From IMG/VR virus record IMGVR_UViG_3300009095_000037, positions 1-35,679 of that record: a DNA stretch of 35,679 nt; one strand, given 5' to 3'. This DNA is from a virus. Taxonomy: Duplodnaviria > Caudoviricetes. Under the pieces are notes generated by a model. The model saw only the letters and a list, made by a program, of their open reading frames with translations. It ran no database searches and was not told the DNA's origin. Shown here piece by piece: positions 3,001 to 34,442 of this stretch (positions are counted from its first letter, which is position 1; every line of letters begins with the position of its first letter). The position numbers and the translations under genes are program-made.

Positions 3001-5958
3001 CCTACGGGGCTCGCTGAGAAGTTTTATTCGGTGGAGGCGGCAGCAGCCCACGCCCAAGACCCGTTTGAGAACGGTGACGTCCTACTCGTGGACGAGCAGC
3101 CCTACTCCATAACCGGTACGGGGGTAGATGGTACGGGGTTCCACTTCATACTGACCAGCCCCATTCTGCCTGACAATCTTTCCTCTAAATCGTTTAAATT
3201 GCTTAGGCAGCGCAGCATCTCTGGAAAGACGACTGCAAAACCGACATTCTTTCCGGACATCCCCGGTATCTACAAGTTCGATCTGATCGTAAGCGATGGT
3301 TTAGCGCTGAGCCCGCTTAGTACGACCATCGTCAACGTTCTAGAATCGCCGATCCCTAGGGGCTGCGCGCCCGACCTATCCTTCATCTGGAGCTACCTGT
3401 CTGACTTCTGGGGACTGGTAGAGGACCGGGAAAGACTAGGCGTATTTTTCGAATCGATGGCGCAGGTCGCGGCCAGCGAGCTTCTCACTCTATGGCAAAT
3501 CGATTATTCAAAGAGCCTGCGAGACGTTCAGCGTACCATTCAGCGCCGCTGGCTACACTACGACCTGCTGCTGGCAGAGCCATTACCTGAGCTGACCAGG
3601 ATTCGACAAATTCGCGGTGGGGTGGAGAGCGTCTTCTTCCCAGGCGGGCAGCTCGCCGGCATTGCCGGTACCAAACTGGTTGTATCGTCGCCAGCTCTAG
3701 AAAAAGACCTGACCGTTGTCTTCGCAAGCCCCAACCCCTATACCGCGCAACAATTTAGCGAAGAACTGAACAGACGTATTTCATTCCTGGACGCCAGGTT
3801 CAGAACGCAGCTGATCCAAGGGCATGCCTCTGGCGACATCGTTCGTTTGGACGCATCTATCCCCTTCACGATTTCTTCTGAAACTACCTGCCCGGTATTC
3901 GTGAACGGTAGCTCTAACCAGCATCTGCATGGCGCTGGCATACGAGTTGGGACGCGGTCTTACAAGGTAGATAGAAGCCTCGTCGGTTTGGGTCTGAAAG
4001 AAGGCGATGTTATTACTATTGATGGGGAAGGGTACTCAATTCTTCGTATAGCCGACGACCCCGCTGACGAGTATCGATTCCAACGGGTACTTGTTAAGCG
4101 TGACGTGCCGCTACTGCTGGGCAGCACCTGGAGCATTTCAGCTTATGTCGATAGCCGTCTGCTTAATTTCTATGCGGGCCTGGTCACGGAGGGGGACATC
4201 GCAACGTTCGAAGTTACCGAGGTCAATGCCCGCTCTTCGCAATTGTTGCCAGCGCCAGTGAAGGGCGTGCCTTCGTCCGCACCCAGTCGGCTCGCAGTAG
4301 ATTTAGACGCCATCGACGTCTACGTATCCCAACCTGAGCGGTACACGGTCCGCCTGGCCAAAGTCAATCGAAAAAATTACGTGCCAGTCGATGCTTTGGT
4401 CGTTGATGTTCCTTGCCTTCAAGAGTTTATTAAGCCGGCGTCTGACGCCGAGGTTTTACGGCGTAACGTAGACTATTACATTGATACGTTCAGAGGCCAA
4501 CCCTGCATCAAATTCGTATCCGAGGCAGGTGGCCCTGATGTGTGGGAAGGCAACCTGCCGCCAGACCGGCTTTGGGCTGAGACTACATACATCGACAATA
4601 GCCTAGCTATAGAAGCCAATTTTGGTACACCAGTTGAGTTCACGCTGGAGGATGCGGCTCAGGTCAGCCACAACTTCGATTATCTGTCGGCGGTCAAGGG
4701 TCTTTGGTACGCCTACTTGAACGGGCCTACCATCAGTAACCTGCGTATCGGCACTCAAATACTTTTGGGCCTACCCTTCGCAGAAGAAGCTGGCGTCATA
4801 GAAGAGATACGTCACGAATTTTCCCCGTCTCAGGGTAGGATTCTGATCAGAGACAAGGCCAGCTCTGCTGTCGTTCGTTCTTATAGTTATCCGCGAACGC
4901 TTTCTCTAGAGACAAATCCAGAGACTGGGCGGCCTTACCAGGTAGGGGACGAGGTCTCTCAGTTCGCCCCGCTCGTTCGTGGTGCGGAGGTTTTGGATTG
5001 GGTGAACACTCCAGATTGGTTTGAGGGGTATCTCAATCAGGGGTCGTTCTTAGAAATCGAAAAGTTTTTTAAGTTCCTGGTTAGAATAGACAGCGAAGCG
5101 TTTAGTCTTACCGCCTTGTCGTTCGTTCAAAGCTTAATCTTAAGAATAAAGCCAACCATAACCTATCCGCTATTTGTTATTCGGCAGGCTGTAGCCGCGG
5201 CTGAGGTAAGCGTAGACGACCAGGTCTCCATACAGGGTACTCTCTACCTTTTTGATGGTGGGTGCACCGACTTCGTTAAGCAGGGCACCGGCTCTACGAT
5301 GTTCGACGACCCCAACCCTTCCGGTGGCGGTTGGTTTAATCAGTTCGATGGCAATAATGATCCGCACGACGCGCCAGTTGTAGATCAGTACCCCGTTCCA
5401 CAACCAGTGTCCTGGGGTTTTGACAAAAATTATTTGTGCCCGGAGGATTCGATAACGGGTTGGATACTGGCGGAACACCTGGGTGGCGTTCCTGAGGACG
5501 CGAACCCGCCCATCAACGCTAACTTCGACAACGGCGCCCACCCGGTCTTTGTTGGCGAGGACACCAACGTAACAGCACTGAGCACTACTCAGACGATTTT
5601 TCATTCTACTGTCAGCAGCTCCGTTGCCGGGGTCATAGAAGCTGTGTGGCTAGTTATTCATGGCGACCCGGGCGGAGACCCAACGGATTACGAGCTTTGC
5701 CTCAACGTTAACGGAGTCACGGCAGAGGTAATTCCGTTCAACGTCACCGATACTGGTATAGTTGCGCTACTGCCCACCTCTGGTCTTACCTCGGTGGTAG
5801 CAACCCAGCCTTTTTCTGTAGGCATAAGGACTACTTCTGGCTCCAGAAACCCCAACTGGGCGTCAGTTTATGTGATGGCGGTTTTGGAGTCGGTGCCGTT
5901 CACTTACGACCAGTCCATGCCTAGTGCTATTTACGCTGTGCCTTTTACCTTCCAGTGA
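1..5958 (+). CDS. Giant mosaic virion protein (tail fibre-like N-terminus, PKD/Ig-like domain, putative baseplate-like C-terminus), 5'-truncated
   Basis: The frame is open from position 1 (TEPGDIVVG before the listed Met at 28). It has Gly/Ala/Ser/Thr-rich repeats, repeated beta-rich modules starting xxGD-hydrophobic, and the PKD-like motif APVADAGRDQ...LDGSGSADPEG...YSW. It is followed by tail-like genes. Confidence 0.7.
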   Translation, partial: TEPGDIVVGMLGVIGTEHEGDPDPQSDQTVALANFRHNFHAISISWKPASEGSTTVFYGSGDPDEPFPGVSLAAIALRPRSGTPIEVTRAMVLEALAGLATERAMPVEVLARLELERSAPFEALAGKIGGAGTGAAAATIGEGAGAVLAEAEGAGAIGAATGTGGSSVQVTAAGKAASSVDAIGTGSVPIVGIGAATASIDTTGAGSTIVSGVGVAATAAAIGEGVGQAGSLVIGVGTGGVASAFGEGSGSAQVTAASATELPAGVGEGSGSVQVTGAGVAGLGSVSSGAGQTIISGAGSASTATIEGIGGAVVSDGIITLVGAGNRSGTSGASAASPTVNIIEGIQAGDLIIISISVKPSNPDRNPFPPVVSGFSRVAYRYGSNQPGDIGTDNDTGGYGTTTGSDLGNVSVAFYAKIAEGDEPTSIPFPLDFDTFPEAPAGGVSSHKLLVFRKTSGAWFLNGTAANDKIGGDISLVFDSDPGVEAGDVVVVAVAVASFDFDSIGSYALSQNGVTFDTITEIDQFKNPLGWHIGGFLITAPVLAGASSGAPTLTASVTGTSTDVRGPGLFLRIAANNGGAGSGAALTTATGAGSVLVQADGAGQSSQIGTSSGQVTVSGGGGGAASFTSVGLAFVNPAIGRGGGASDAFAGVGAAATITSGAGKGEAAFQALGGAELLGHPSLAPSLGGFGYGWGAVPWGFSFFAATEAPPPPDEFDIFCFFASSMVNVLVSSDANVIDAGGQFSPGQLGDLVVGSGGGSYSTANAILEINTSVPESWTLQFAVKAVSLPNDFSSLVSNHVFVGTTDGAGACAGVFISKVGVVYTGGVSHSVSGDLQIDGPLALLPDSINYVQTDDYVVFRIAADYQAGVVYIYITAASDIPFMGQQLRYVMPVIKAEDLANPPFDRTLISVRGSIVDASVVNFDQLCLADGLLIPNLAPVADAGRDQAARLCSLVRLDGSGSADPEGQPLFYSWRLVDAPLTSSFAFAGYDGATVPTAPPTGLAEKFYSVEAAAAHAQDPFENGDVLLVDEQPYSITGTGVDGTGFHFILTSPILPDNLSSKSFKLLRQRSISGKTTAKPTFFPDIPGIYKFDLIVSDGLALSPLSTTIVNVLESPIPRGCAPDLSFIWSYLSDFWGLVEDRERLGVFFESMAQVAASELLTLWQIDYSKSLRDVQRTIQRRWLHYDLLLAEPLPELTRIRQIRGGVESVFFPGGQLAGIAGTKLVVSSPALEKDLTVVFASPNPYTAQQFSEELNRRISFLDARFRTQLIQGHASGDIVRLDASIPFTISSETTCPVFVNGSSNQHLHGAGIRVGTRSYKVDRSLVGLGLKEGDVITIDGEGYSILRIADDPADEYRFQRVLVKRDVPLLLGSTWSISAYVDSRLLNFYAGLVTEGDIATFEVTEVNARSSQLLPAPVKGVPSSAPSRLAVDLDAIDVYVSQPERYTVRLAKVNRKNYVPVDALVVDVPCLQEFIKPASDAEVLRRNVDYYIDTFRGQPCIKFVSEAGGPDVWEGNLPPDRLWAETTYIDNSLAIEANFGTPVEFTLEDAAQVSHNFDYLSAVKGLWYAYLNGPTISNLRIGTQILLGLPFAEEAGVIEEIRHEFSPSQGRILIRDKASSAVVRSYSYPRTLSLETNPETGRPYQVGDEVSQFAPLVRGAEVLDWVNTPDWFEGYLNQGSFLEIEKFFKFLVRIDSEAFSLTALSFVQSLILRIKPTITYPLFVIRQAVAAAEVSVDDQVSIQGTLYLFDGGCTDFVKQGTGSTMFDDPNPSGGGWFNQFDGNNDPHDAPVVDQYPVPQPVSWGFDKNYLCPEDSITGWILAEHLGGVPEDANPPINANFDNGAHPVFVGEDTNVTALSTTQTIFHSTVSSSVAGVIEAVWLVIHGDPGGDPTDYELCLNVNGVTAEVIPFNVTDTGIVALLPTSGLTSVVATQPFSVGIRTTSGSRNPNWASVYVMAVLESVPFTYDQSMPSAIYAVPFTFQ
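265..378 (+). repeat. Three degenerate 42-nt (14-aa) coding repeats
   Basis: RAMVLEALAGLATE / RAMPVEVLARLELE / RSAPFEALAG, starting at 265, 307 and 349. Confidence 0.7.
385..945 (+). repeat. Degenerate ~21-aa Gly/Ala-rich coding repeats
   Basis: ggtgaaggctctggttcagcacaggtaac at 736 and ggtgaaggttctggttccgtccaagtgac at 799 (63-nt period). A similar tract recurs at about 1730-2030. Confidence 0.7.
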
Positions 5959-12268: not shown

Positions 12269-12334
12269 TAGCTAAAAAAGAGCGAGGTGGTCAGGAACGT
12301 GGGTACGTTACCAACCACCTCGTTTTTATTTAGC
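12269..12334. terminator. Bidirectional intrinsic terminator between convergent blocks
   Basis: Perfect stem cgaggtggt (12283-12291) / accacctcg (12314-12322), inner aacgt/acgtt stem, A-tract before and T-tract after. Confidence 0.8.
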
Positions 12335-12488
12335 GCTGTCCCAGTAGGATCAGTAGGCTATCTAAAATGTGCGCCACTTTTGAGCGCAGGGGTTTGTGGT
12401 CAACCCTCCAACTGGAACTGACCATGCCACAGCCTAGGCAGTACCACTGTCCACCTTGGTGCAGTATTCTTCCATTACATTTTTTCAT
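12330..12488 (-). CDS. Small 52-aa Cys-containing protein (not in ORF track)
   Basis: Manual translation MKKCNGRILHQGGQWYCLGCGMVSSSWRVDHKPLRSKVAHILDSLLILLGQR. GAGG upstream, and the ORF ends at the terminator. Confidence 0.6.
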   Translation of the reverse strand: MKKCNGRILHQGGQWYCLGCGMVSSSWRVDHKPLRSKVAHILDSLLILLGQR

Positions 12489-12537: not shown

Positions 12538-12735
12538 TTATAGTCTTATCGCTCCTGCTTCTACTTTTCTTAAAAGCGCCGCCTTCGTGATGGCGTCTTT
12601 AACCTGTAGATTTAGTGTTTGTGCGAACTCGAGGAGCTCCTGGTAGCTCATTTTTTCTAGTTCATCACGGGAGATGGTGATGACGTCCTCGAATGACGGC
12701 CGCACGCACCCAGGCCAAACGGCGGCCGGCGTCAG
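12538..12735 (-). CDS. 65-aa Rho_N/HeH-like segment, probable -1 frameshift extension of the upstream gene (not in ORF track)
   Basis: Manual translation LTPAAVWPGCVRPSFEDVITISRDELEKMSYQELLEFAQTLNLQVKDAITKAALLRKVEAGAIRL, in the -1 frame relative to 12732-13385. No ATG precedes the domain. Confidence 0.65.
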   Translation of the reverse strand: MTPAAVWPGCVRPSFEDVITISRDELEKMSYQELLEFAQTLNLQVKDAITKAALLRKVEAGAIRL

Positions 12736-12755
12736 TTTCCCTCGTCTTCTCCTCC
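12697..12755 (-). promoter_or_regulatory. Candidate programmed -1 ribosomal frameshift signal
   Basis: GGAGG (12755-12751), in-frame G-GGA-AAC heptamer (12741-12735), stop TGA, then a 7-bp GC stem (12728-12722 / 12703-12697). Confidence 0.6.
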
Positions 12756-13385
12756 ACCGGATTTGGGCAGGCGCACGCCGAGTTGTTCGAGCATCTTGAT
12801 TAGGCTATCGGTGTCGTTGACCGCCTCGTTGAGCACGTCCCCTCGGCCTGCGTTAAGGACCTGTTCGGCCAGGAGCAGCGACAGCGCCATTTGGATTACG
12901 ATCAGACGGTTTGTGCCTCGCACGGACAGAAACGCCATGTTTGAGGCGCCGACCAGCTGCTGAAGCGTATTAGTGTTAGCTTCCACGGCCGCGCTCAGTC
13001 GGTTGATAGCGGCCATAGTTTCTGCGCTAAGCTCTGCGGGACCAGCGCTCTTAAGCGTTTCCCTAGCAGCCGGTACAGGCTGCCGAGTTGCTGGGGTCCG
13101 GCCTCCGTTGACGGGGGTGCGCTGGACTGCTTGGGGGGCAGGTTCTGGTTGGTCATCCACCTCCTCCACGGCGCCGCTGGCTGCCGCTTTTTGGTCTCGC
13201 ATTTGCAGCATTGTAAACACTGCCTGAGCCATTTCAGCCGAGGTTCCGTTCATGAACCTCATTTTGGCGGACTCGTCCGGGATCAGCCCGCCCTGTTCGG
13301 CCAACCGCCGCAGCGCAAACCTACCCAAAGTCGTCAGGGCAGCGAGATCGCGGGGGGCACTATCGATGTTGATAACCTCGGGCAT
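12732..13385 (-). CDS. Hypothetical protein (helical N-domain, Pro/Ala-rich linker, coiled coil)
   Basis: 217 aa, TAATG coupling with the upstream gene and AAGGAG RBS. Confidence 0.75.
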   Translation of the reverse strand: MPEVINIDSAPRDLAALTTLGRFALRRLAEQGGLIPDESAKMRFMNGTSAEMAQAVFTMLQMRDQKAAASGAVEEVDDQPEPAPQAVQRTPVNGGRTPATRQPVPAARETLKSAGPAELSAETMAAINRLSAAVEANTNTLQQLVGASNMAFLSVRGTNRLIVIQMALSLLLAEQVLNAGRGDVLNEAVNDTDSLIKMLEQLGVRLPKSGGGEDEGN

Positions 13386-13786
13386 TACTTGGTCTCCTTC
13401 AGTCTCTTGAGCCGATACCTATCGATCAGCGGCTCATTTTCTTGGTTACTCACTAAACAGGTCAGTACTTGTACGTCAATACATTTGAAGCACGGCCGAG
13501 GGTCTGGCTTGGTAGGGTGCTTCAACATTTTCATTGGGCAGACGAGCTGGGTCTCCAGCTCTTTCCAATGGTCGGCTACGAAGTCAATCAGCCCAAGTCG
13601 GTGGATATGAAGCGGGTGGTGTGGTTCCGGTATTTCTGGTGGTTCTGCCTCCCCTTCCAAGTAGGCAATCATTTCTTCGTTCGTCGCGCTCGGCAGCACC
13701 TGGATGCCTACCCGCAGACATGTTTGGTATAACTCTGTGCGATTGAATTTCGCGAAGCTCAGTTCATTGGGCTCTGATTCCTGCAT
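13385..13786 (-). CDS. Hypothetical protein with HeH/Rho_N-like N-terminus and Cys-rich C-terminus
   Basis: FAKFNRTELYQTCLRVGIQVLPSATNEEMIAYL, followed by C...CxxC...C. Confidence 0.65.
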   Translation of the reverse strand: MQESEPNELSFAKFNRTELYQTCLRVGIQVLPSATNEEMIAYLEGEAEPPEIPEPHHPLHIHRLGLIDFVADHWKELETQLVCPMKMLKHPTKPDPRPCFKCIDVQVLTCLVSNQENEPLIDRYRLKRLKETK

Positions 13787-14222
13787 CGAACGGAGTGTCC
13801 TCGTCTTCTAAGTCCCAGATTCGGATGACCGTCCGTTCTGGTCCTAATTTCTTTTGGACAACGACCACCAGGTTGTTGGAATCGTCCACTGCGGAAACTT
13901 CCGCTAGTACATCCTCCAACAACTTGATGCAGTTGGTGGCGTCGAGTTTCTTATACCTAGATTTAGCTTTGTTTGGCCAGCCTTTTACTACTAGGTCTTC
14001 CAGGTAGAGTGTAATGTAGACCAGGTATGGCTTGTTTTTTTCTATTTTATTTAGTTCTTTCGGGTAGTTACGCGCTAAATGTGAGATAGATTCTTCTTTG
14101 TATTTTCGACCTGCGGCGGTGAGGATTCTGACGACTACTCTGCCCCCGCCCTTGCTCATCAAGGTGTGGGTATAGGCTCTGTTGATCGAAATGGGCAGTG
14201 AAGGTAGCTCTAGTTCTATCAT
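13764..14222 (-). CDS. rusA: RusA-like Holliday junction resolvase
   Basis: LPISIN...G..YK...DATNCIKLLEDVL....DDS matches the RusA DxxNxxKxxxD...DD signature. Confidence 0.85.
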   Translation of the reverse strand: MIELELPSLPISINRAYTHTLMSKGGGRVVVRILTAAGRKYKEESISHLARNYPKELNKIEKNKPYLVYITLYLEDLVVKGWPNKAKSRYKKLDATNCIKLLEDVLAEVSAVDDSNNLVVVVQKKLGPERTVIRIWDLEDEDTPFDAGIRAQ

Positions 14223-14806
14223 CTAGACAAGCCGCTTCGACGTATCGCCCCTCGATTGCTGATATTCGACGCTATTTTGTGGCCTTCCAGCTCTATTTTT
14301 CTGATCTCGATGTGGCGTGAGACCGTGCGCAGGTTGGCATCTACGGTGTCCATTCTGCCTTGCAGTAGGTCTTGTAGCTGCTTCCAGCGCTGGTGGGTCA
14401 GCCGCAGCTCCTGATGACGAGGGTCGGTCTCTATCGTCATTCGCATGTACTCAGCGGTCGGTTTTTTACCGGGAGCGTTGAGCATGTTCTTTTTGGTCAT
14501 GACCTCGATGAGTTCCATCTCGTTCGAGGCCTGGAGCACCATGGCCTTTGCGTACGCCAGCCGCTCGGCGAGATATCCGTACCAGTTCAGCAGCCGTTCG
14601 TAGACAATGGTGTATTCCTCTGCCGACAGGTTGAGCAGGCTACCTGGCTCTATCACCGGGCACGGAAAATCTGGTTCTTCTAGCGGGGCGATACCCATAT
14701 CTTCCATTTGTTTCATTGCCCAGCCGATGGTGTCCCATGTTTGGTGTAGATTACTGCTCTCGGTTTCCCCTACTCCATGCACTATAGGTGTTCTCAGCAT
14801 TTTCAT
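14219..14806 (-). CDS. Helical protein, possible UvsY-like recombination mediator
   Basis: All-helical, with a KKPT...IETDP...coiled coil...VSRHIEIR pattern reminiscent of UvsY. Clustered with RecA and a gp32-like SSB. Confidence 0.45.
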   Translation of the reverse strand: MKMLRTPIVHGVGETESSNLHQTWDTIGWAMKQMEDMGIAPLEEPDFPCPVIEPGSLLNLSAEEYTIVYERLLNWYGYLAERLAYAKAMVLQASNEMELIEVMTKKNMLNAPGKKPTAEYMRMTIETDPRHQELRLTHQRWKQLQDLLQGRMDTVDANLRTVSRHIEIRKIELEGHKIASNISNRGAIRRSGLSR

Positions 14807-15705
14807 GTCAACTTTAGCCCGCGTTGTTTCCTGTTAGGGTTTTTGTAGGTTTCCTGCCGCCGTTGCTGCTTATACTTTTCTGTCTTTTCCTTTTGTACCA
14901 GGTAGGCCGGCTTGCAGAAGTGGGCGTAGGAACAGAAGCAGCATTTTATGCCTTCTTTGCGGTCTGGCAACCGCAGTGCTTCTGCGTCCTCCCAGCGTTC
15001 TTTGATGATGGCCTCTAGCTTTTGCCAACGCCGATGGTCGAAGCGAATCAGGAACGGTTCGCTGCTCGGGACCATGTTCTGGTTACCCTTGTTGTAATAG
15101 ACGAACCAGAGCAGAGGGATGTCCAGGCAGGCCATGTAAATGGTCGCCTGGTCCAGGTGGAATTTACTGGGTTCTTTGCGGTTCTCGAATTCCTTGGGCG
15201 AATCGGTTTTGATTTCGGTGGCTACGCGTAGGACTACTGGTCCCGCTGGCTTTTCTCGGAAACTGAAGACCCCGTCGCAGTGTGAGTGGATTCCCAGGCG
15301 CTTTGCTACCTCTTGCCATTGTGGGCTGATGGGGACCTCGGCTTCGTAGCTGAGCAGCCCTCCGGTTTTTTCACTCATCCGCTCGAAGTCATTTTGGAGC
15401 ATGGCGTGGATGGCGTGCCCGACACGGAACCGTTTCTTCCAAAACGGGTCTATTTTTTGTTGCTTCTCGACGCCAATCATCGAGTAGACCACCTGCCTTG
15501 GGCAGCCATCCAGGCTTATCTCCGAAGCGTGCGCTCCTTCTGCGCGGTGTATCGAGCTTCTAAATTGTACTTCGAATGACGCGTCGTCATCGTCATTTCT
15601 GATGAATTCATCGTAGTCGCCCTTTAGCCTTCTGGCCAGCGACGTGTAGTAAAGAATCATCTCGGGAGATTCATTGGTCAGATCAGCTATCGTCGTCAGG
15701 GCCAT
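14803..15705 (-). CDS. Cas4-like PD-(D/E)XK exonuclease
   Basis: ASEI..GCPR, G.AIH, CDG...EIKT, Q...YM, and C-terminal CCFCSYAHFC (Fe-S ligand pattern). Confidence 0.85.
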   Translation of the reverse strand: MALTTIADLTNESPEMILYYTSLARRLKGDYDEFIRNDDDDASFEVQFRSSIHRAEGAHASEISLDGCPRQVVYSMIGVEKQQKIDPFWKKRFRVGHAIHAMLQNDFERMSEKTGGLLSYEAEVPISPQWQEVAKRLGIHSHCDGVFSFREKPAGPVVLRVATEIKTDSPKEFENRKEPSKFHLDQATIYMACLDIPLLWFVYYNKGNQNMVPSSEPFLIRFDHRRWQKLEAIIKERWEDAEALRLPDRKEGIKCCFCSYAHFCKPAYLVQKEKTEKYKQQRRQETYKNPNRKQRGLKLT

Positions 15706-16024
15706 ATTGCGCTCTCCAAACGTCGTAGGGGATTACAACCCAGCGCTCATCCGTACGCCCGTACTGGTCCAAGAATGCAATGTCCAGCACTGGGGTTTCC
15801 CCTACGTAGCACTCCCCTCTGATTTTTATTAGTTCTTCTTTAGTGAGACGGTAGGATTTATTTCTTGTGTACTTGCACTCGGCTCTGAACACACCCTTTT
15901 TTCTTACGTCTCCCTTCAGCCCCGGCAGGCAACCGGAGCCCTTTTGTTGGCGAGCTCCGGTTGCCCCTGCTAGCTCATGCTCTTGGCGCATAGCACGGCG
16001 CCTACGCTTTTTTGCGTTGAGCAT
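15683..16024 (-). CDS. Small PD-(D/E)XK nuclease (Holliday-junction-resolvase-like)
   Basis: RQE..LA...GSG....KGDV......AECKYT. Confidence 0.7.
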   Translation of the reverse strand: MLNAKKRRRRAMRQEHELAGATGARQQKGSGCLPGLKGDVRKKGVFRAECKYTRNKSYRLTKEELIKIRGECYVGETPVLDIAFLDQYGRTDERWVVIPYDVWRAQYGPDDDS

Positions 16025-16026
16025 GG

Positions 16027-17361
16027 CTAGCGATAGCTGCAGTGTTTGCCGGCGGCGTGGAGAATTTGTTCGCGGACTCGGAGCTCCACCTCGAAATCTT
16101 TGGCCATTTCTTCTATGAACATTTCTTTGTTCGGCACTTCTTCTAGCAGTTCATCGGGCTTTGCCACGGACGTACCGACGTTATTGATGAGGGTGAGCAT
16201 CCCGTTTCTTTCTACGATGGCTCCGTAGCGCAGACCAGTCACGATGATGTCTTCTAGGTCTCTGGTGTGCGTGGGCTCGTCGTAGTAGAACGAGACCTCC
16301 CCCGTTATCCCGTCGTGGGTATCGCCTTTGCCTTTGGTAATTTCCCAACGAATTCCCTTGCCGATCTGCTCCTTGGTCTTGGAATCCTTTATCTTTTCGC
16401 CGGGCTTGAGGGTGATGTCTATCTGCCGCCAGTGCTTTACCGAGCGCACGTTCGTGCCGGTGTAGTCGGGCATGTACTTGGCTAGGTACGATTGCACCTC
16501 AGCCTTCTTTCGGTTCGCTCTTACCTGGCAGGTTCCGATCAGGGTTGTTATCCCCGGGGCCATTTGGTTGTGGGTGATGGGGGCATAGCGTTGGAAGAAG
16601 CGGGTTAGGTTCCGAGCGTGAGCGGCCTGCATCGGATTGTCCTCGAGCGAGTCCAGTTGCGCCTCCGCATCTGGGATCATGGCCTCCAGCGAATCTATCC
16701 AAATAATGCCGTAGATGTTCTGCCTTAGCAGCTCCTCCACGGCCAGGAGCACCTCCTCCTGCGTGCCTGGGGCTATCTGGACGTTCTGGCCGATGCCCGT
16801 GCGCAGGTCCGCCACCTCCTCATCGGTGAGCAGAGGCAGACCCAAGCGGTGGCGTCGCTGCTGCGACGCCTCTATCAGGGTTTTAGGCACGGCCACGACC
16901 CAACCCATCCTGCGGGCCCTCCAGTAGTCGATCCCCCCGTCCTCCGCCGGATGGAAGGCAATACAGGCATCGTTGCCGTACAGCCGCTGGTGCATCGCAC
17001 AGTACTTGTAAAGTAATGTCGATTTACCAACGTTGTCCGGCCCCGTTATGGTGTTGAACGTGCCCGCTTGAAACCCACCACCACAGTCGATGTCTAACTG
17101 CAAGATGCCTGATGGCCGACGGATATGGTGCATATTGACCATATCGTCCGCCAGGTTCAGCATCGGCCTTTTGAACTTGGCGTTCAATTTATTTACCACC
17201 CCCATCACCTCTCGTCGCCGCTCCTGAGAAGGCATGCTGGGTTTGGTGGTAACAGGCGTTCGTACTATTTTCGGAAAAGGGTCGGCCTTACTAGCCGACA
17301 CCTTGACTGTGCGCTTCGTTTCCTTGGTCGTGCTCTTTTCTGCTTTCTTTCTAGTCGCCAT
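16027..17361 (-). CDS. recA: RecA/UvsX-like recombinase
   Basis: PSGILQLDIDCGGGF, Walker A GPDNVGKS, Walker B IIWIDS, QVR motif. Confidence 0.9.
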   Translation of the reverse strand: MATRKKAEKSTTKETKRTVKVSASKADPFPKIVRTPVTTKPSMPSQERRREVMGVVNKLNAKFKRPMLNLADDMVNMHHIRRPSGILQLDIDCGGGFQAGTFNTITGPDNVGKSTLLYKYCAMHQRLYGNDACIAFHPAEDGGIDYWRARRMGWVVAVPKTLIEASQQRRHRLGLPLLTDEEVADLRTGIGQNVQIAPGTQEEVLLAVEELLRQNIYGIIWIDSLEAMIPDAEAQLDSLEDNPMQAAHARNLTRFFQRYAPITHNQMAPGITTLIGTCQVRANRKKAEVQSYLAKYMPDYTGTNVRSVKHWRQIDITLKPGEKIKDSKTKEQIGKGIRWEITKGKGDTHDGITGEVSFYYDEPTHTRDLEDIIVTGLRYGAIVERNGMLTLINNVGTSVAKPDELLEEVPNKEMFIEEMAKDFEVELRVREQILHAAGKHCSYR

Positions 17362-31277: not shown

Positions 31278-34200
31278 ATGAGTTTCATTGGTGGCGGGCT
31301 AAGTTTAAACGCTGGTTTAGGTGGTACTGCCCGTTTCAGTCAAACTCGTGGGCGTATAGGTGGTTCCGTCCAAGGGGTTAACTATCCGTCGCCATTTTTT
31401 GATATTGCTCATACGTACCTTCCGATCACCATCAAGGCGATGTTTCGGTGGTGCAGGTATTACTTCCTGACCAACCCGATCATCAATGCGGTGGTCTTCA
31501 AGATGAGCGAGTACCCGATTACGGATTTTGTAATCGACCACCCTGACAAAGAAATCGTCAATCGCTGGACGGAATATTTCAACGACCATCTACGCTACAG
31601 GTCGTTTCAAGTAGAATGTGGGCTGGATTACCATACTTACGGCAATGCCCTGACAGCGTTGAGCTTTCCGTTTCAGAAGTTCGTCATTTGCCCCCAGTGT
31701 AAGTTCAGCGCTGAGGCCAGGAAGATTAGGCCTTATTGGACCTTCACTAATTACGAGTTTAGGCTGGCTTGTCCCAAGTGTTTGCATACGGGTCCGGCGC
31801 AAGCCAAAGACTTTTACTTCAAGAATGCCTCTGGGGTTCGCCTGATGCGCTGGAACCCAGAGGACGTTGAAATCTTCTATTCTGACGTCACTGGCGACTA
31901 CACCTACTTCTACAACATTCCAAATACTGTTCGTAACGACGCCCTGATTGGCAAGAAAGAGGCCATCGAAAATATCCCGCAGATTTTCATTCAGGCGCTG
32001 AAGCAGCAGAAGGGTGTGACCTTTAACAAGGACATGCTCTTTCATTTGAAGCGACCGACGCTGGCCGACCAAGATCGGGGTTGGGGCATCCCGTTGTTGC
32101 TGCCGGTGCTGAAGGACGTTTTTTACCTGCAAATAATGAAAAAAGCTCAAGAATGTGTGGCCCCAGATACACTGCTAGAAACAGATCGTGGTCTTGTAAT
32201 AGCTGCTGAGATCAGGGTTGGGGATTTGGTTCGTACGCATCTAGGGAGATTCAAACGTATTTCCCAGTTGCGGGTGCGGCCAATGATAGAAGAGCGCGGT
32301 GACCACGCAGTTAAAATCTCAGTCACCGGGCTTCGCCATCTGCCCTCAGTTTTCTCCAACAACCATCCGTTGTGGGTCCTTAGTCGGAAGGATACAAAGG
32401 AGCACCAACGTTCGTCTGCGCCCCTTAGCTCCTCCGATCTACACGAGTTCAAATGGGTGGACGCTGGGAACGTTAAGGTTGGTGATTACATCGGCTACCC
32501 GATTCGACGCTGCCGCGAAACCAGAGGCGTCGCTATCGCGAAATATGTCGATGGGGAGAAGAGACTTCCTCAGTATTTAGAACTGGACGAGGATTTGGCT
32601 TACATAGCCGGTTGGTACGCCGGTGATGGGAGCATAGAGGCAGGGCGCGTCGATTTCTCATTGGGCCCGGACGCCGATGGCGTAGAGCTGCAAGAAGCAA
32701 TCGAGCGAGTATTTGGCGGTACTTTTTCTGTGTACCACAGCGCTGCTTCTAAGGGCTGGACGCTGTGTGCCTCCGATACCCTCATGTCCGAATTTTTAGC
32801 CAGGTGGATTCCTGGCGATGCAAGTAGCAAGCGCATCCCAGAGGAGATTGCGACCGCACCGGACAACGTCGTTCTGGCATTCCTTCGTGGCTACCTAGAA
32901 GCGAACGGCTACGTAAAAGATAAGGGGTACACGGAAGAGACCGTAGCTATTTGCTGCTCTAATAAGCAGCTCAGCTATCAGGTCTGGTCTCTGCTCATTT
33001 CTTTGGGTTGTATTGCCACTATATCTGAGCGGACGAGTTACGATACGGTTATAACAAAGACCGACGACTCCAAGCAGTTCATAAAGGGTGGCCGTCCTAA
33101 TTTCCATATTACGGTTAAATCGCGCTCGGCCCGACGCCTATTGGCTTTAATGCGCGGTGAAGATGCCGTAGTTGTGACCTCCGGGAATAGCGGCTTCTTC
33201 ATTAATGATTATTTCGCTGCTCGAGTTAGCGAAGTGGAAGTCGTGCCTTGCCCGGAAGTAATAAGTTTTGAGGTTGAGGACGATCACACTTTCTGTGTGC
33301 CTGGGATGGCCACGCACAATAGCATTTTGCTTGAGCATATCGTGCCACTCAGGATTCTGTTCCCGCAGCCGGGGTCAGGTACGTCCGACCCCTATACTTC
33401 TATTCATTTAGATCAGTGGCGGGACCACGTGGCTATGGAAATAGCGCGGTGGCGGTTAGACCCCAATTACATTCCGATTCTTCCGTTGCCCGTTGGTAAT
33501 CAGACGCTTGGCGGAGATGGGCGCGCCCTTCTTCTAGTGCAGGAGATGATCGCGATGGGGGAGCAGATCATCAACGGGATGCAGGTGCCGCTCGAATTCA
33601 TCAAAGGCGGCATGTCTTACGCGGGCACCAACGTGTCCATGCGCATGCTAGAGAACCAGTTCATAGGTTATTTGAGCCGTCACAAGCAGATGGCCAACTG
33701 GGTGCTAAAAAAGATCGCTGCGTATATGGATTGGCCAACGGCCACGGTTCGTTTCAAGCCGTTCAAGATGGCCGATGATATTCAGCGTAAGGCTTATCTC
33801 TTCCAGCTCAATCAAGCTGGTAAGGTCAGCGATACGACACTTCTGGCAGATTCCGATCTAAATCAGGAAGACGAGAACGAAACTATGAAGCGCGAGACTG
33901 CGTCTCGCATCTCCGCAATGGAAGAACAGCAGCTTGCTCTAGCCGAGCTTCAGGGTAAGCAGCAGGTCATCTCCATGAAGATGACCGCCAAGGCGCAGCA
34001 AGAGCTTGCCGAATCGATGGCCGCTCCCGCCGCCCCAGGCGAGCCTGGTGGGCCCAAAGACGCGATTAGTGCCGGACCCATGCAGGCTATGCAGAGCCCG
34101 TTAAACGACGGTCAGGACATGGGAATGGCCAACGGCCCCGCCCCTGGCCAGGAGGCGATGATGGGCGGCTCCAGTATCATTGCCGTCGCTAGCAGTATTG

Positions 34201-34442
34201 CTGCCCAGCTACTGCCTTTGGATGCCCAGTCTCAGCACCTTGCTGTCCAGGATTTGCGCAAGCAAAGCCCGGAGCTCGCCGATCTAGTCGTTCAATTCTT
34301 GGTCAGCATGGCGGGTCAGCAGCATCAGGAGCAACAGCAAGCGACCAACCAGCTTGGCGCAGCCGGGCAAGCGGCTCAGCAGGTGGACATGACCCCACTG
34401 CCCGAGCAAAGAGCCCCCCGAAGAGCCGCTGGGACTGTTTAA
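31278..34442 (+). CDS. Putative portal protein, intein-containing
   Basis: Extein motifs NPIINAVV, LDY..YGNA, RWNPEDV and LFHLKR.....RGWGIP.L..VL are typical of portals. Gln-rich C-terminal tail. Confidence 0.75.
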   Translation: MSFIGGGLSLNAGLGGTARFSQTRGRIGGSVQGVNYPSPFFDIAHTYLPITIKAMFRWCRYYFLTNPIINAVVFKMSEYPITDFVIDHPDKEIVNRWTEYFNDHLRYRSFQVECGLDYHTYGNALTALSFPFQKFVICPQCKFSAEARKIRPYWTFTNYEFRLACPKCLHTGPAQAKDFYFKNASGVRLMRWNPEDVEIFYSDVTGDYTYFYNIPNTVRNDALIGKKEAIENIPQIFIQALKQQKGVTFNKDMLFHLKRPTLADQDRGWGIPLLLPVLKDVFYLQIMKKAQECVAPDTLLETDRGLVIAAEIRVGDLVRTHLGRFKRISQLRVRPMIEERGDHAVKISVTGLRHLPSVFSNNHPLWVLSRKDTKEHQRSSAPLSSSDLHEFKWVDAGNVKVGDYIGYPIRRCRETRGVAIAKYVDGEKRLPQYLELDEDLAYIAGWYAGDGSIEAGRVDFSLGPDADGVELQEAIERVFGGTFSVYHSAASKGWTLCASDTLMSEFLARWIPGDASSKRIPEEIATAPDNVVLAFLRGYLEANGYVKDKGYTEETVAICCSNKQLSYQVWSLLISLGCIATISERTSYDTVITKTDDSKQFIKGGRPNFHITVKSRSARRLLALMRGEDAVVVTSGNSGFFINDYFAARVSEVEVVPCPEVISFEVEDDHTFCVPGMATHNSILLEHIVPLRILFPQPGSGTSDPYTSIHLDQWRDHVAMEIARWRLDPNYIPILPLPVGNQTLGGDGRALLLVQEMIAMGEQIINGMQVPLEFIKGGMSYAGTNVSMRMLENQFIGYLSRHKQMANWVLKKIAAYMDWPTATVRFKPFKMADDIQRKAYLFQLNQAGKVSDTTLLADSDLNQEDENETMKRETASRISAMEEQQLALAELQGKQQVISMKMTAKAQQELAESMAAPAAPGEPGGPKDAISAGPMQAMQSPLNDGQDMGMANGPAPGQEAMMGGSSIIAVASSIAAQLLPLDAQSQHLAVQDLRKQSPELADLVVQFLVSMAGQQHQEQQQATNQLGAAGQAAQQVDMTPLPEQRAPRRAAGTV
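32154..33320 (+). mobile_element. Intein (389 aa) with LAGLIDADG homing-endonuclease domain
   Basis: N-splice QE|CVAPDT, block B SNNHP, IAGWYAGDG and FLRGYLEANG, block F/G FEVEDDHTF...ATHN|S. Confidence 0.95.

Follow-up and report, generated by a model that had tools for sequence, protein, structure and literature searches.

To our knowledge, frameshifts that are conserved across whole lineages of tailed phages have been documented almost only for virion assembly, that is for tail chaperones and capsid or tail extensions. In phage lambda, a heptamer of the G GGA AAN type near the end of a first open reading frame (ORF) yields a short major product, gpG, and a long minor product, gpGT, which share an N-terminus and occur at a gpG:gpGT ratio of 30:1, and this signal is conserved despite low protein identity (accessible text of PMC5009743). 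Among the shift sites that the same source gives for haloviral g-t genes are G_GGA_AAC and G_GGA_AAG; it also states that a Shine-Dalgarno (SD) sequence 9-14 nucleotides (nt) upstream stimulates -1 shifts and describes capsid and tail proteins of T3/T7 (gene 10), Lactobacillus A2 and Listeria A118/A500/PSA in which a shift near the stop places a small domain, often immunoglobulin-like, on a fraction of the subunits. Frameshifts in non-structural phage genes have also been reported, namely A2 cro (PMC5009743) and those in a list in PMC10885494, as far as the accessible portions of these papers go. Here we analysed a 35,679-nt stretch of tailed-phage DNA (Caudoviricetes; IMG/VR record IMGVR_UViG_3300009095_000037, positions 1 to 35,679), hereafter the window, in which a minus-strand gene of 217 amino acids (aa) ends in a lambda-type heptamer followed directly by its stop codon, and the -1 frame stays open for 65 further codons. 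The mechanism is already known; what appears to be new is a conserved, probable site of this kind in an apparently non-virion gene of a recombination cluster. Our literature search found no report of the site or of the protein family, although subscription papers lay mostly outside that search and supplements were excluded, and an earlier mention is possible.

The 217-aa ORF closes with the codons GAG GGA AAC TGA. Each element described in a sequence-only reading of the window proved to be exact on the minus strand (Table 1): the heptamer itself, GGAGG at a distance of 9 nt on its 5' side, a GC stem of 7 bp beginning 6 nt past it, and a -1 frame open over 65 codons. The SD-like element reaches -9.3 kcal/mol with its longer pairing, and the stem consists of seven G-C pairs around an 18-nt loop; the 80 nt 3' of the heptamer fold no better than chance (z = 0.17, a fold equalled by 108 of 200 shuffles). 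Within the window taken by itself, the position of the heptamer is the sole striking element; comparison with relatives shows that heptamer and -1 frame are conserved far beyond chance. Two other routes past the stop were rejected. Upon read-through of the TGA at the window, the 0 frame closes after 24 codons, with the conserved peptide sitting in the -1 frame, and the +1/-2 frame is short and has no shared motif. That the broken frame is an assembly error or a gene decaying by a one-base change has nothing specific in its favour beyond the window being a metagenomic contig, and is effectively refuted: the heptamer is free of indels in the contigs of four out of four runs from three studies (one of them possibly the source of the window), and 33 of 35 distinct loci are broken in the same way.

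Table 1. Positions in the window of the probable frameshift gene, its putative signal, its domains and the genes upstream
Feature	Position	Strand	Remark
Recombination cluster upstream, same strand	13764..17361	-	RecA-like, Holliday-junction resolvase, Cas4-like nuclease, 195-aa protein, RusA
Upstream 133-aa gene	13385..13786	-	next to the family gene in relatives, some of which have the two genes fused in frame
0-frame gene, 217 aa (short isoform)	12732..13385	-	no Pfam name; its family counts at least 263 clusters (50% identity)
N-terminal four-helix domain, residues 14-69	13179..13346	-	Rho_N/SAP(HeH)-like; in both isoforms; AlphaFold2 pLDDT (predicted local distance difference test) >90
60-residue helix (residues 118-177) and helix 181-201	12783..13034	-	predicted coiled coil/oligomerisation, behind a disordered linker
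SD-like GGAGG	12751..12755	-	9 nt 5' of heptamer; possible local stimulator
Slippery heptamer G GGA AAC	12735..12741	-	last two codons Gly-Asn; X XXY YYZ phase
0-frame stop TGA	12732..12734	-	overlaps CTG, the first -1-frame codon
7-bp GC stem, arms 12728-12722 and 12703-12697	12697..12728	-	possible local stimulator; out of conserved register
-1-frame extension, 65 aa (P0001)	12538..12735	-	TAA at 12540-12538
W-P-G-C motif of extension	12706..12717	-	its most conserved element, retained where the HeH part is lost
Predicted HeH (Rho_N/SAP/LEM-like) helices of extension, residues 23-60	12556..12669	-	AlphaFold2 pLDDT 89

The footprint of the heptamer can be followed across the family at the protein level. 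A profile search returned at least 263 clusters at E up to 0.001, and we examined 154 proteins (its best 150 plus further matches from another search, with two near-copies of the query excluded). A G-K or G-N pair lies within the last six residues of 116 of these proteins and is missing from the other 38, as compared with 0.6% per position elsewhere. Among the 119 proteins with such a pair no more than five residues from the end (the first pair being used where there are two), D, N, H, Y, F, C and I are entirely absent from the position before the Gly of the pair (0/119 vs a background of about 20%). The codons of these seven residues cannot end in G, and their absence is what a site of the form NNG GGN AAN predicts.

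At the DNA level, 68 of 101 viral or metagenome loci match the family profile, and these reduce to 35 distinct complete loci, including the window, once two truncated loci are left out. An in-phase G GGA AA[A/C] stands at the gene end in 31 of the 35: we counted 22 G GGA AAA and 9 G GGA AAC, together with one A AAA AAA, one G GGG GAA and two loci with no site. The set is diverse, with only one pair at or above 50% identity over at least 120 aa. By comparison, an in-phase G GGA AA[A/C] occurs within the last 15 codons at only 3 of 1,335 other ORF ends (both strands, shadow frames included), and two of these three are probably L052 and L091, which were later recognised as family members. In a complete relative, G001, any slippery heptamer at all is found at the end of 5 of 271 ORFs. 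The codons fixed at the site are minority codons in these genes, where GGA accounts for 124 of 661 Gly codons and AAA for 81 of 444 Lys codons. Whereas the distance from heptamer to stop ranges from 0 to 12 codons, the codon phase is invariant (31/31 loci). Homologues thus keep the heptamer that the sequence-only reading picked out; the stem it proposed is not conserved, and the 154 family proteins include no homologue with the two ORFs fused in frame.

The arrangement extends to relatives at the edge of the family. Among the 33 loci that do not match the family profile, eight distinct ones carry the extension and about 23 showed neither part. The extension lies in the -1 frame in seven of the eight, behind G GGA AAA, G GGA AAC, G GGA AAG, C CCT TTG, G GGT TCC and two unclear sites. 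A final scan added four loci, all in the -1 arrangement, of which two have G GGA AAC, one G GGG GAA and one G GGT TCC. The loci that keep the -1 arrangement with non-canonical sites (L113/L154, L153, L107, L109, L082) include two distinct loci with G GGT TCC TGA, a site C CCT TAA, and a pair of loci in which no heptamer is clear. Other searches were less productive: single-protein scans of viral contigs and a first alignment scan gave no usable relatives, one metagenome scan returned nothing beyond the contig of the window itself and a single truncated locus, none of the 25 genome-contig loci that matched the motif was homologous, and cultured phages contained no match to the 217-aa protein or to the RecA-like protein.

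Two variations on the gene end deserve description in their own right. L006 and L056 have lost the 0-frame stop, so that the 0 frame continues for 97 and 53 codons, respectively, with the -1 frame intact; the 0 frame of L006 (3513-3813) passes a terminator-like hairpin and T tract, so that unshifted ribosomes there may reach a stopless mRNA end, and the corresponding region of L056 is 4976-5144. In L087/L088 (5095-5304), the HeH-like extension continues the 0 frame past a TGA and has no start codon ahead of its domain; TGA nevertheless terminates other ORFs there. L087 is a candidate for stop-codon read-through in place of the frameshift.

Downstream of the heptamer, it is the -1 frame that bears the marks of a coding sequence. 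A W-P-G-like motif occurs at extension codon 6 to 11 in 27 of 33 loci. The corresponding TGGCC lies 14-29 nt 3' of the heptamer and follows the -1 phase in 23/23 loci, its third positions vary synonymously, and indels between heptamer and W motif are multiples of three; varying third positions and spacing in steps of three led us to reject a conserved RNA element as the cause of TGGCC. Identity in the -1 frame by codon position is 0.49/0.58/0.37 (25 loci). Furthermore, no ATG, GTG or TTG precedes the conserved W in 23 of 27 loci, one being present at or before it in the other four. Together, the conservation of the heptamer, its phase, the coding -1 frame and the missing start codons make a programmed -1 ribosomal frameshift at the end of this gene very likely. 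The earlier proposal of two isoforms, of 217 and about 282 aa, is accordingly supported by the comparison. Since the hidden domain is not startable on its own in most relatives, gene callers will miss it.

In mechanistic terms, the shift would occur by tandem slippage, which we regard as highly probable: the Gly-tRNA would move from GGA to GGG and the Asn- or Lys-tRNA from AAC/AAA to AAA. A minority of ribosomes would thereby slip back one base, so that the 217-aa protein would be common and a 282-aa form, extended by the W-P-G motif and a second predicted HeH domain, would be rarer. The adjacent stop and a locus-specific SD or hairpin could tune the shift to a low level, probably a few per cent. 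The G001 genome (L135, 11993-12189) encodes only two tRNA genes, tRNA-Phe(GAA) and tRNA-Val(AAC), neither of which serves the Gly, Lys or Asn codons at the heptamer.

Set beside the known systems, the gene resembles lambda G/GT in the features given above and differs from it in lying within a recombination/replication cluster, in matching no chaperone, in having an extension of about 65 aa with W-P-G and HeH-like parts, and in coexisting with a separate candidate G/GT-like site in these phages. With the E. coli dnaX/IS3 signal, the window shares the presence of SD, heptamer and stem, with plausible spacing on both sides; unlike dnaX, the heptamer is G GGA AAC/AAA rather than A AAA AAG, the SD and stem are not family-wide, and the shift lengthens the product where that of dnaX shortens it. 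The capsid and tail proteins with minor extended forms are virion proteins, whereas the carrier here is apparently non-structural and the added domain HeH-like. The site is kept across proteins that are mostly 20-40% identical, within a DNA-recombination cluster. For reporter work, these loci also offer one bacterial -1 signal in more than 30 natural versions, some accompanied by an SD or a stem and others not; AAA and AAC are preferred at the site over the shiftier AAG; and the G-K/G-N footprint at protein ends suggests that phage recoding sites could be found from protein databases alone.

We turned to structure prediction for both parts of the long form. The extension, modelled with helices at residues 23-28, 31-40 and 51-60, is predicted to have an HeH fold, in line with the Rho_N/HeH-like domain named in the sequence-only reading. 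Its top structural match is the Rho N-terminal domain 1a62 (Z 5.1, root-mean-square deviation 1.9 over 45 residues), and the other matches are to T4 endonuclease VII, SAP and LEM, all at low Z (4.1-5.1 for the top matches together). Pfam Rho_N (PF07498) matches the extension at E 0.048, with 14.1 bits below the gathering cut-off of 24.9, and is found at E up to 0.1 in two of 27 extension members; Foldseek returned nothing at E up to 0.001 for the model of either part. The extension has in common with the HeH families (Rho N-terminal domain, SAP, LEM, T4 endonuclease VII C-terminus) two to three helices joined by an extended segment, and departs from them in scoring below the Pfam cut-off, in a Z of at most 5.1 and in a neutral to acidic charge. 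Its length also varies: in four loci it comprises only 19-28 aa, with W-P-G and acidic residues and no HeH part, and in two others 47-49 aa. Of the four short-extension loci, a RusA tree of 43 loci placed only L006 and L009 together.

The short form was found to have a related module of its own. Its residues 5-70 resemble models that belong mostly to Rho_N/SAP clusters among Atlas structures (TM score 0.61-0.73, under the threshold that the Atlas sets for naming), and the profile of the extension weakly matches the N-termini of the 217-aa family (E 7e-4) and of the upstream 133-aa gene. On these two lines of evidence the short form already bears an HeH-like head, contrary to the earlier claim that only the longer form carries such a domain. 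The long predicted helix further along the protein agrees with the coiled coil proposed before, and the whole 217-aa model matches generic coiled coils only (Z up to 6.7). The upstream 133-aa gene has its own HeH-like N-terminus along with conserved cysteines; counting the two modules of the frameshifted gene, the locus would thus carry three HeH-like modules.

The genomic context points towards DNA metabolism, as the sequence-only reading had held in calling the protein non-structural. The frameshift gene is the second last in a long minus-strand block in which Pfam and PHROGs identify HU-like, RecA-like, Holliday-junction resolvase, Cas4-like nuclease and RusA proteins and tblastn names a family A DNA polymerase; further upstream are genes that we take, from their translations only, to encode a helicase, a primase and a uracil-DNA glycosylase. 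Relatives keep the order 195-aa gene, RusA, 133-aa gene, frameshift gene, and the 133-aa gene and 0-frame gene are fused in P0049, P0090, P0110, P0121, P0139, P0148 and P0149.

Position and predicted fold also bear on whether the shift, if real, sits in a tail assembly chaperone gene (G/GT) that has moved, or in some other gene of virion assembly. Such an origin could be entertained because tail chaperones use the same class of heptamer (PMC5009743, accessible text) and because the tail module of these phages has not been located, tail sheath PF04984 being absent from all five complete genomes searched. Against it, the gene sits after RecA, Hjc, Cas4-like and RusA genes in the window and in relatives, not between tail tube and tape measure; its predicted fold is HeH, linker and long helix; and no chaperone family appeared among the 24 Pfam families matched by 133 members, in PHROGs or in fold searches, although an unlisted family could escape. 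A better G/GT candidate exists in the same genomes. In G001 only two ORFs combine a heptamer end with a long -1 frame, the family gene and a 468-aa gene at 98134-96728. The latter (G001:C1:98134-96312, minus strand; L140; L146-L149) ends G GGA AAT GGC TAG, and its site is kept in five of five complete genomes, as G GGA AAT in four and A AAA AAT in one, with an extension of 139-146 codons. Pfam and PHROGs give this second gene no name; we presume from its appearance that it is a G/GT pair, possibly the tail assembly chaperone. For the gene studied here, position and predicted fold speak against a tail chaperone, and a virion-assembly role strikes us as very improbable.

What the two isoforms do can be proposed only tentatively, as a possibility that we hold somewhat short of even. 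The protein could form an oligomeric scaffold of phage recombination or replication, in which oligomerisation would fall to the long helix and the binding of DNA or a partner to the HeH head at the N-terminus; a few long subunits would in addition offer a hook at the C-terminus, made of W-P-G either alone or together with HeH, for recruiting a partner at a fixed low stoichiometry, following the logic of lambda gpG/gpGT. The W-P-G motif, which is retained even where HeH is lost, is the best candidate for the hook. Given that Rho N-terminal domains are the best structural matches of both domains and that the lineage has its own RNA polymerase, the same frameshift might instead serve transcription, with Rho_N-like binding to RNA or RNA polymerase and the long form acting as an accessory factor of the phage polymerase. 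This role seems unlikely to us, as Z values of 4.1-5.1 do not separate Rho_N from SAP, LEM or endonuclease VII, the context is one of recombination, and two cultured phages that encode RNA polymerase, Vibrio phage D69 and Salmonella phage Arash, matched neither part. Returning to the scaffold, a wider and still more doubtful proposal is that a lineage of phages of about 190 kb that encode RNA polymerase sets the stoichiometry of a recombination/replication scaffold by recoding. Most subunits would present a single HeH head borne by a coiled coil, and a small number would have, at the far end, a second HeH/W-P-G hook bridging to a partner; this would be a gpG/gpGT-like switch outside virion assembly, beside a second -1 site, and the isoform pair would have been selected through changes of the signal (G GGA AAA/AAC/AAG, G GGG GAA, A AAA AAA, G GGT TCC, possibly the TGA read-through of L087).

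Several results weigh against the frameshift or against the function proposed for it. As to function, the proposal rests on gene neighbourhood and on fold matches of low Z (up to 5.1), and 4 of 33 loci lack the HeH part. Nor is the extension basic: its mean net charge over 27 loci is -2.7, which argues against simple electrostatic binding of nucleic acid. Given this mostly acidic character and the reduction to a W-P-G peptide in four loci, the nucleic-acid binding attributed to it in the sequence-only reading is unsupported. As to the shift itself, L082 keeps the W-P-G/HeH frame without a canonical heptamer, L083, a weak match, has neither, and neither the 154 family proteins nor a weak search for longer in-frame homologues yielded a fusion of 0-frame gene and extension. 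A heptamer ending in AAC shifted only 1-2% in an E. coli example (accessible text of PMC6787027), which together with the lambda ratio makes a low yield likely.

The stimulators are a further weak point. An SD-like duplex of -6 kcal/mol or lower lies 5-19 nt upstream in 13 of 33 loci vs 11% of 759 control windows, and the expectation from synonymous resampling is already 9.4 of 33 (p about 0.04) because the gene tails are rich in Glu and Gly. On the 3' side, downstream folding is slightly better than in controls (mean z -1.0 vs -0.25) and stems starting 4-10 nt away are stronger (mean -11.4 vs -9.1 kcal/mol; 0 of 25 resamples as low), but RNAalifold, applied to structures other than pseudoknots, finds no consensus pair across 23 loci, and the stem of the sequence-only reading is 52% paired across the family vs 45% in shuffles. 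Given the weak SD enrichment and the lack of a consensus stem, the heptamer is on present comparison the conserved core and the stimulators appear to be local, differing from locus to locus; a conserved three-part signal of the dnaX/IS3 type is not supported.

The last group of contrary results concerns start codons. In 13 of 33 loci, including the window, an ATG, GTG or TTG is present among codons 1-20 of the -1 frame, and the junction of heptamer and stop frequently spells ATA; some independent initiation is thus possible. Taken to its end, this would mean that there is no frameshift and that the small ORF is separate, with a coupled start at the CTG overlapping the stop (CTGA) or at an internal GTG or ATG, the G-rich gene end being a ribosome-binding site. 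Overlaps of the form ATGA or TAATG do occur between neighbouring genes of the operon, an overlapping ATGA is also found in L123, and ATG or GTG precedes the W in L054, L074, L004 and L076; at the window, the candidates are the CTG of codon 1 and a GTG at 12705 (codon 11), the first ATG being codon 29, within the helical domain. CTG precedes the W in three more of the 27 loci, the window among them, which leaves 20 of 27 without any of ATG, GTG, TTG or CTG. GGGAAA, moreover, is not an SD consensus, the heptamer keeps a constant phase at 0 to 12 codons from the stop, and the spacer between heptamer and W changes by threes. We therefore consider a separately initiated small ORF to be a slim prospect, and the homologues, which keep the heptamer and mostly lack a start codon for the small ORF, show the opposite of what the sequence-only reading had named as refuting the frameshift.

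A base could also be added at the level of the transcript, if a multisubunit RNA polymerase of the phage slipped on the run of G3A3-4. The idea gains from the relatives, whose complete genomes encode RNA polymerase beta (PF00562, 3/3) and beta-prime (PF00623, 5/5) domains, and from Thermus dnaX, where the same kind of isoform pair arises in this way (PMC5009743, accessible text). The runs are short, however, with three G and three to four A; the X XXY YYZ phase seen in 31 of 31 loci is not needed by a polymerase, though it may be partly inherited; and the variants A AAA AAA, G GGG GAA, G GGA AAG and C CCT TTG are heptamers of the ribosomal type. Transcriptional slippage is, in our view, a very improbable source of the long form.

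The relatives themselves form a recognisable group. The complete ones span 179-196 kb, and the window portal is 63-71% identical to the portals of three complete genomes of 190-196 kb. Their RNA polymerase domains lie in frames of 2,147-2,477 codons (G001-G005; L132-L134), and in G001-G003 beta and beta-prime share one frame of 2,147-2,165 codons, amounting to a fused polymerase of the cellular type. By sequence they appear mReC-like, fitting the group described in the accessible text of PMC7481178: like mReC phages, relatives of 179-196 kb encode both beta and beta-prime domains, and unlike them, G001-G003 have both in one frame, while the window is a fragment without a polymerase. The word frameshift does not occur in the main text of that paper. 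D69 and Arash, the nearest cultured relatives by portal and RNA polymerase, are a weak negative for the two parts of the frameshift gene.

Other features of the window lie outside the frameshift gene. After the extension comes a 52-aa CxxC gene (12330-12488, minus strand), found in the same place in L003 and L010, and a gene with an InPase domain (PF18823; 11312-11803, plus strand) marks the end of the opposite-strand block. The portal gene (31278-34442, plus strand) contains an insertion of about 390 aa (residues 295-681) with Hint and LAGLIDADG matches that is absent from close relatives and, from these matches, appears to be an intein-like element.

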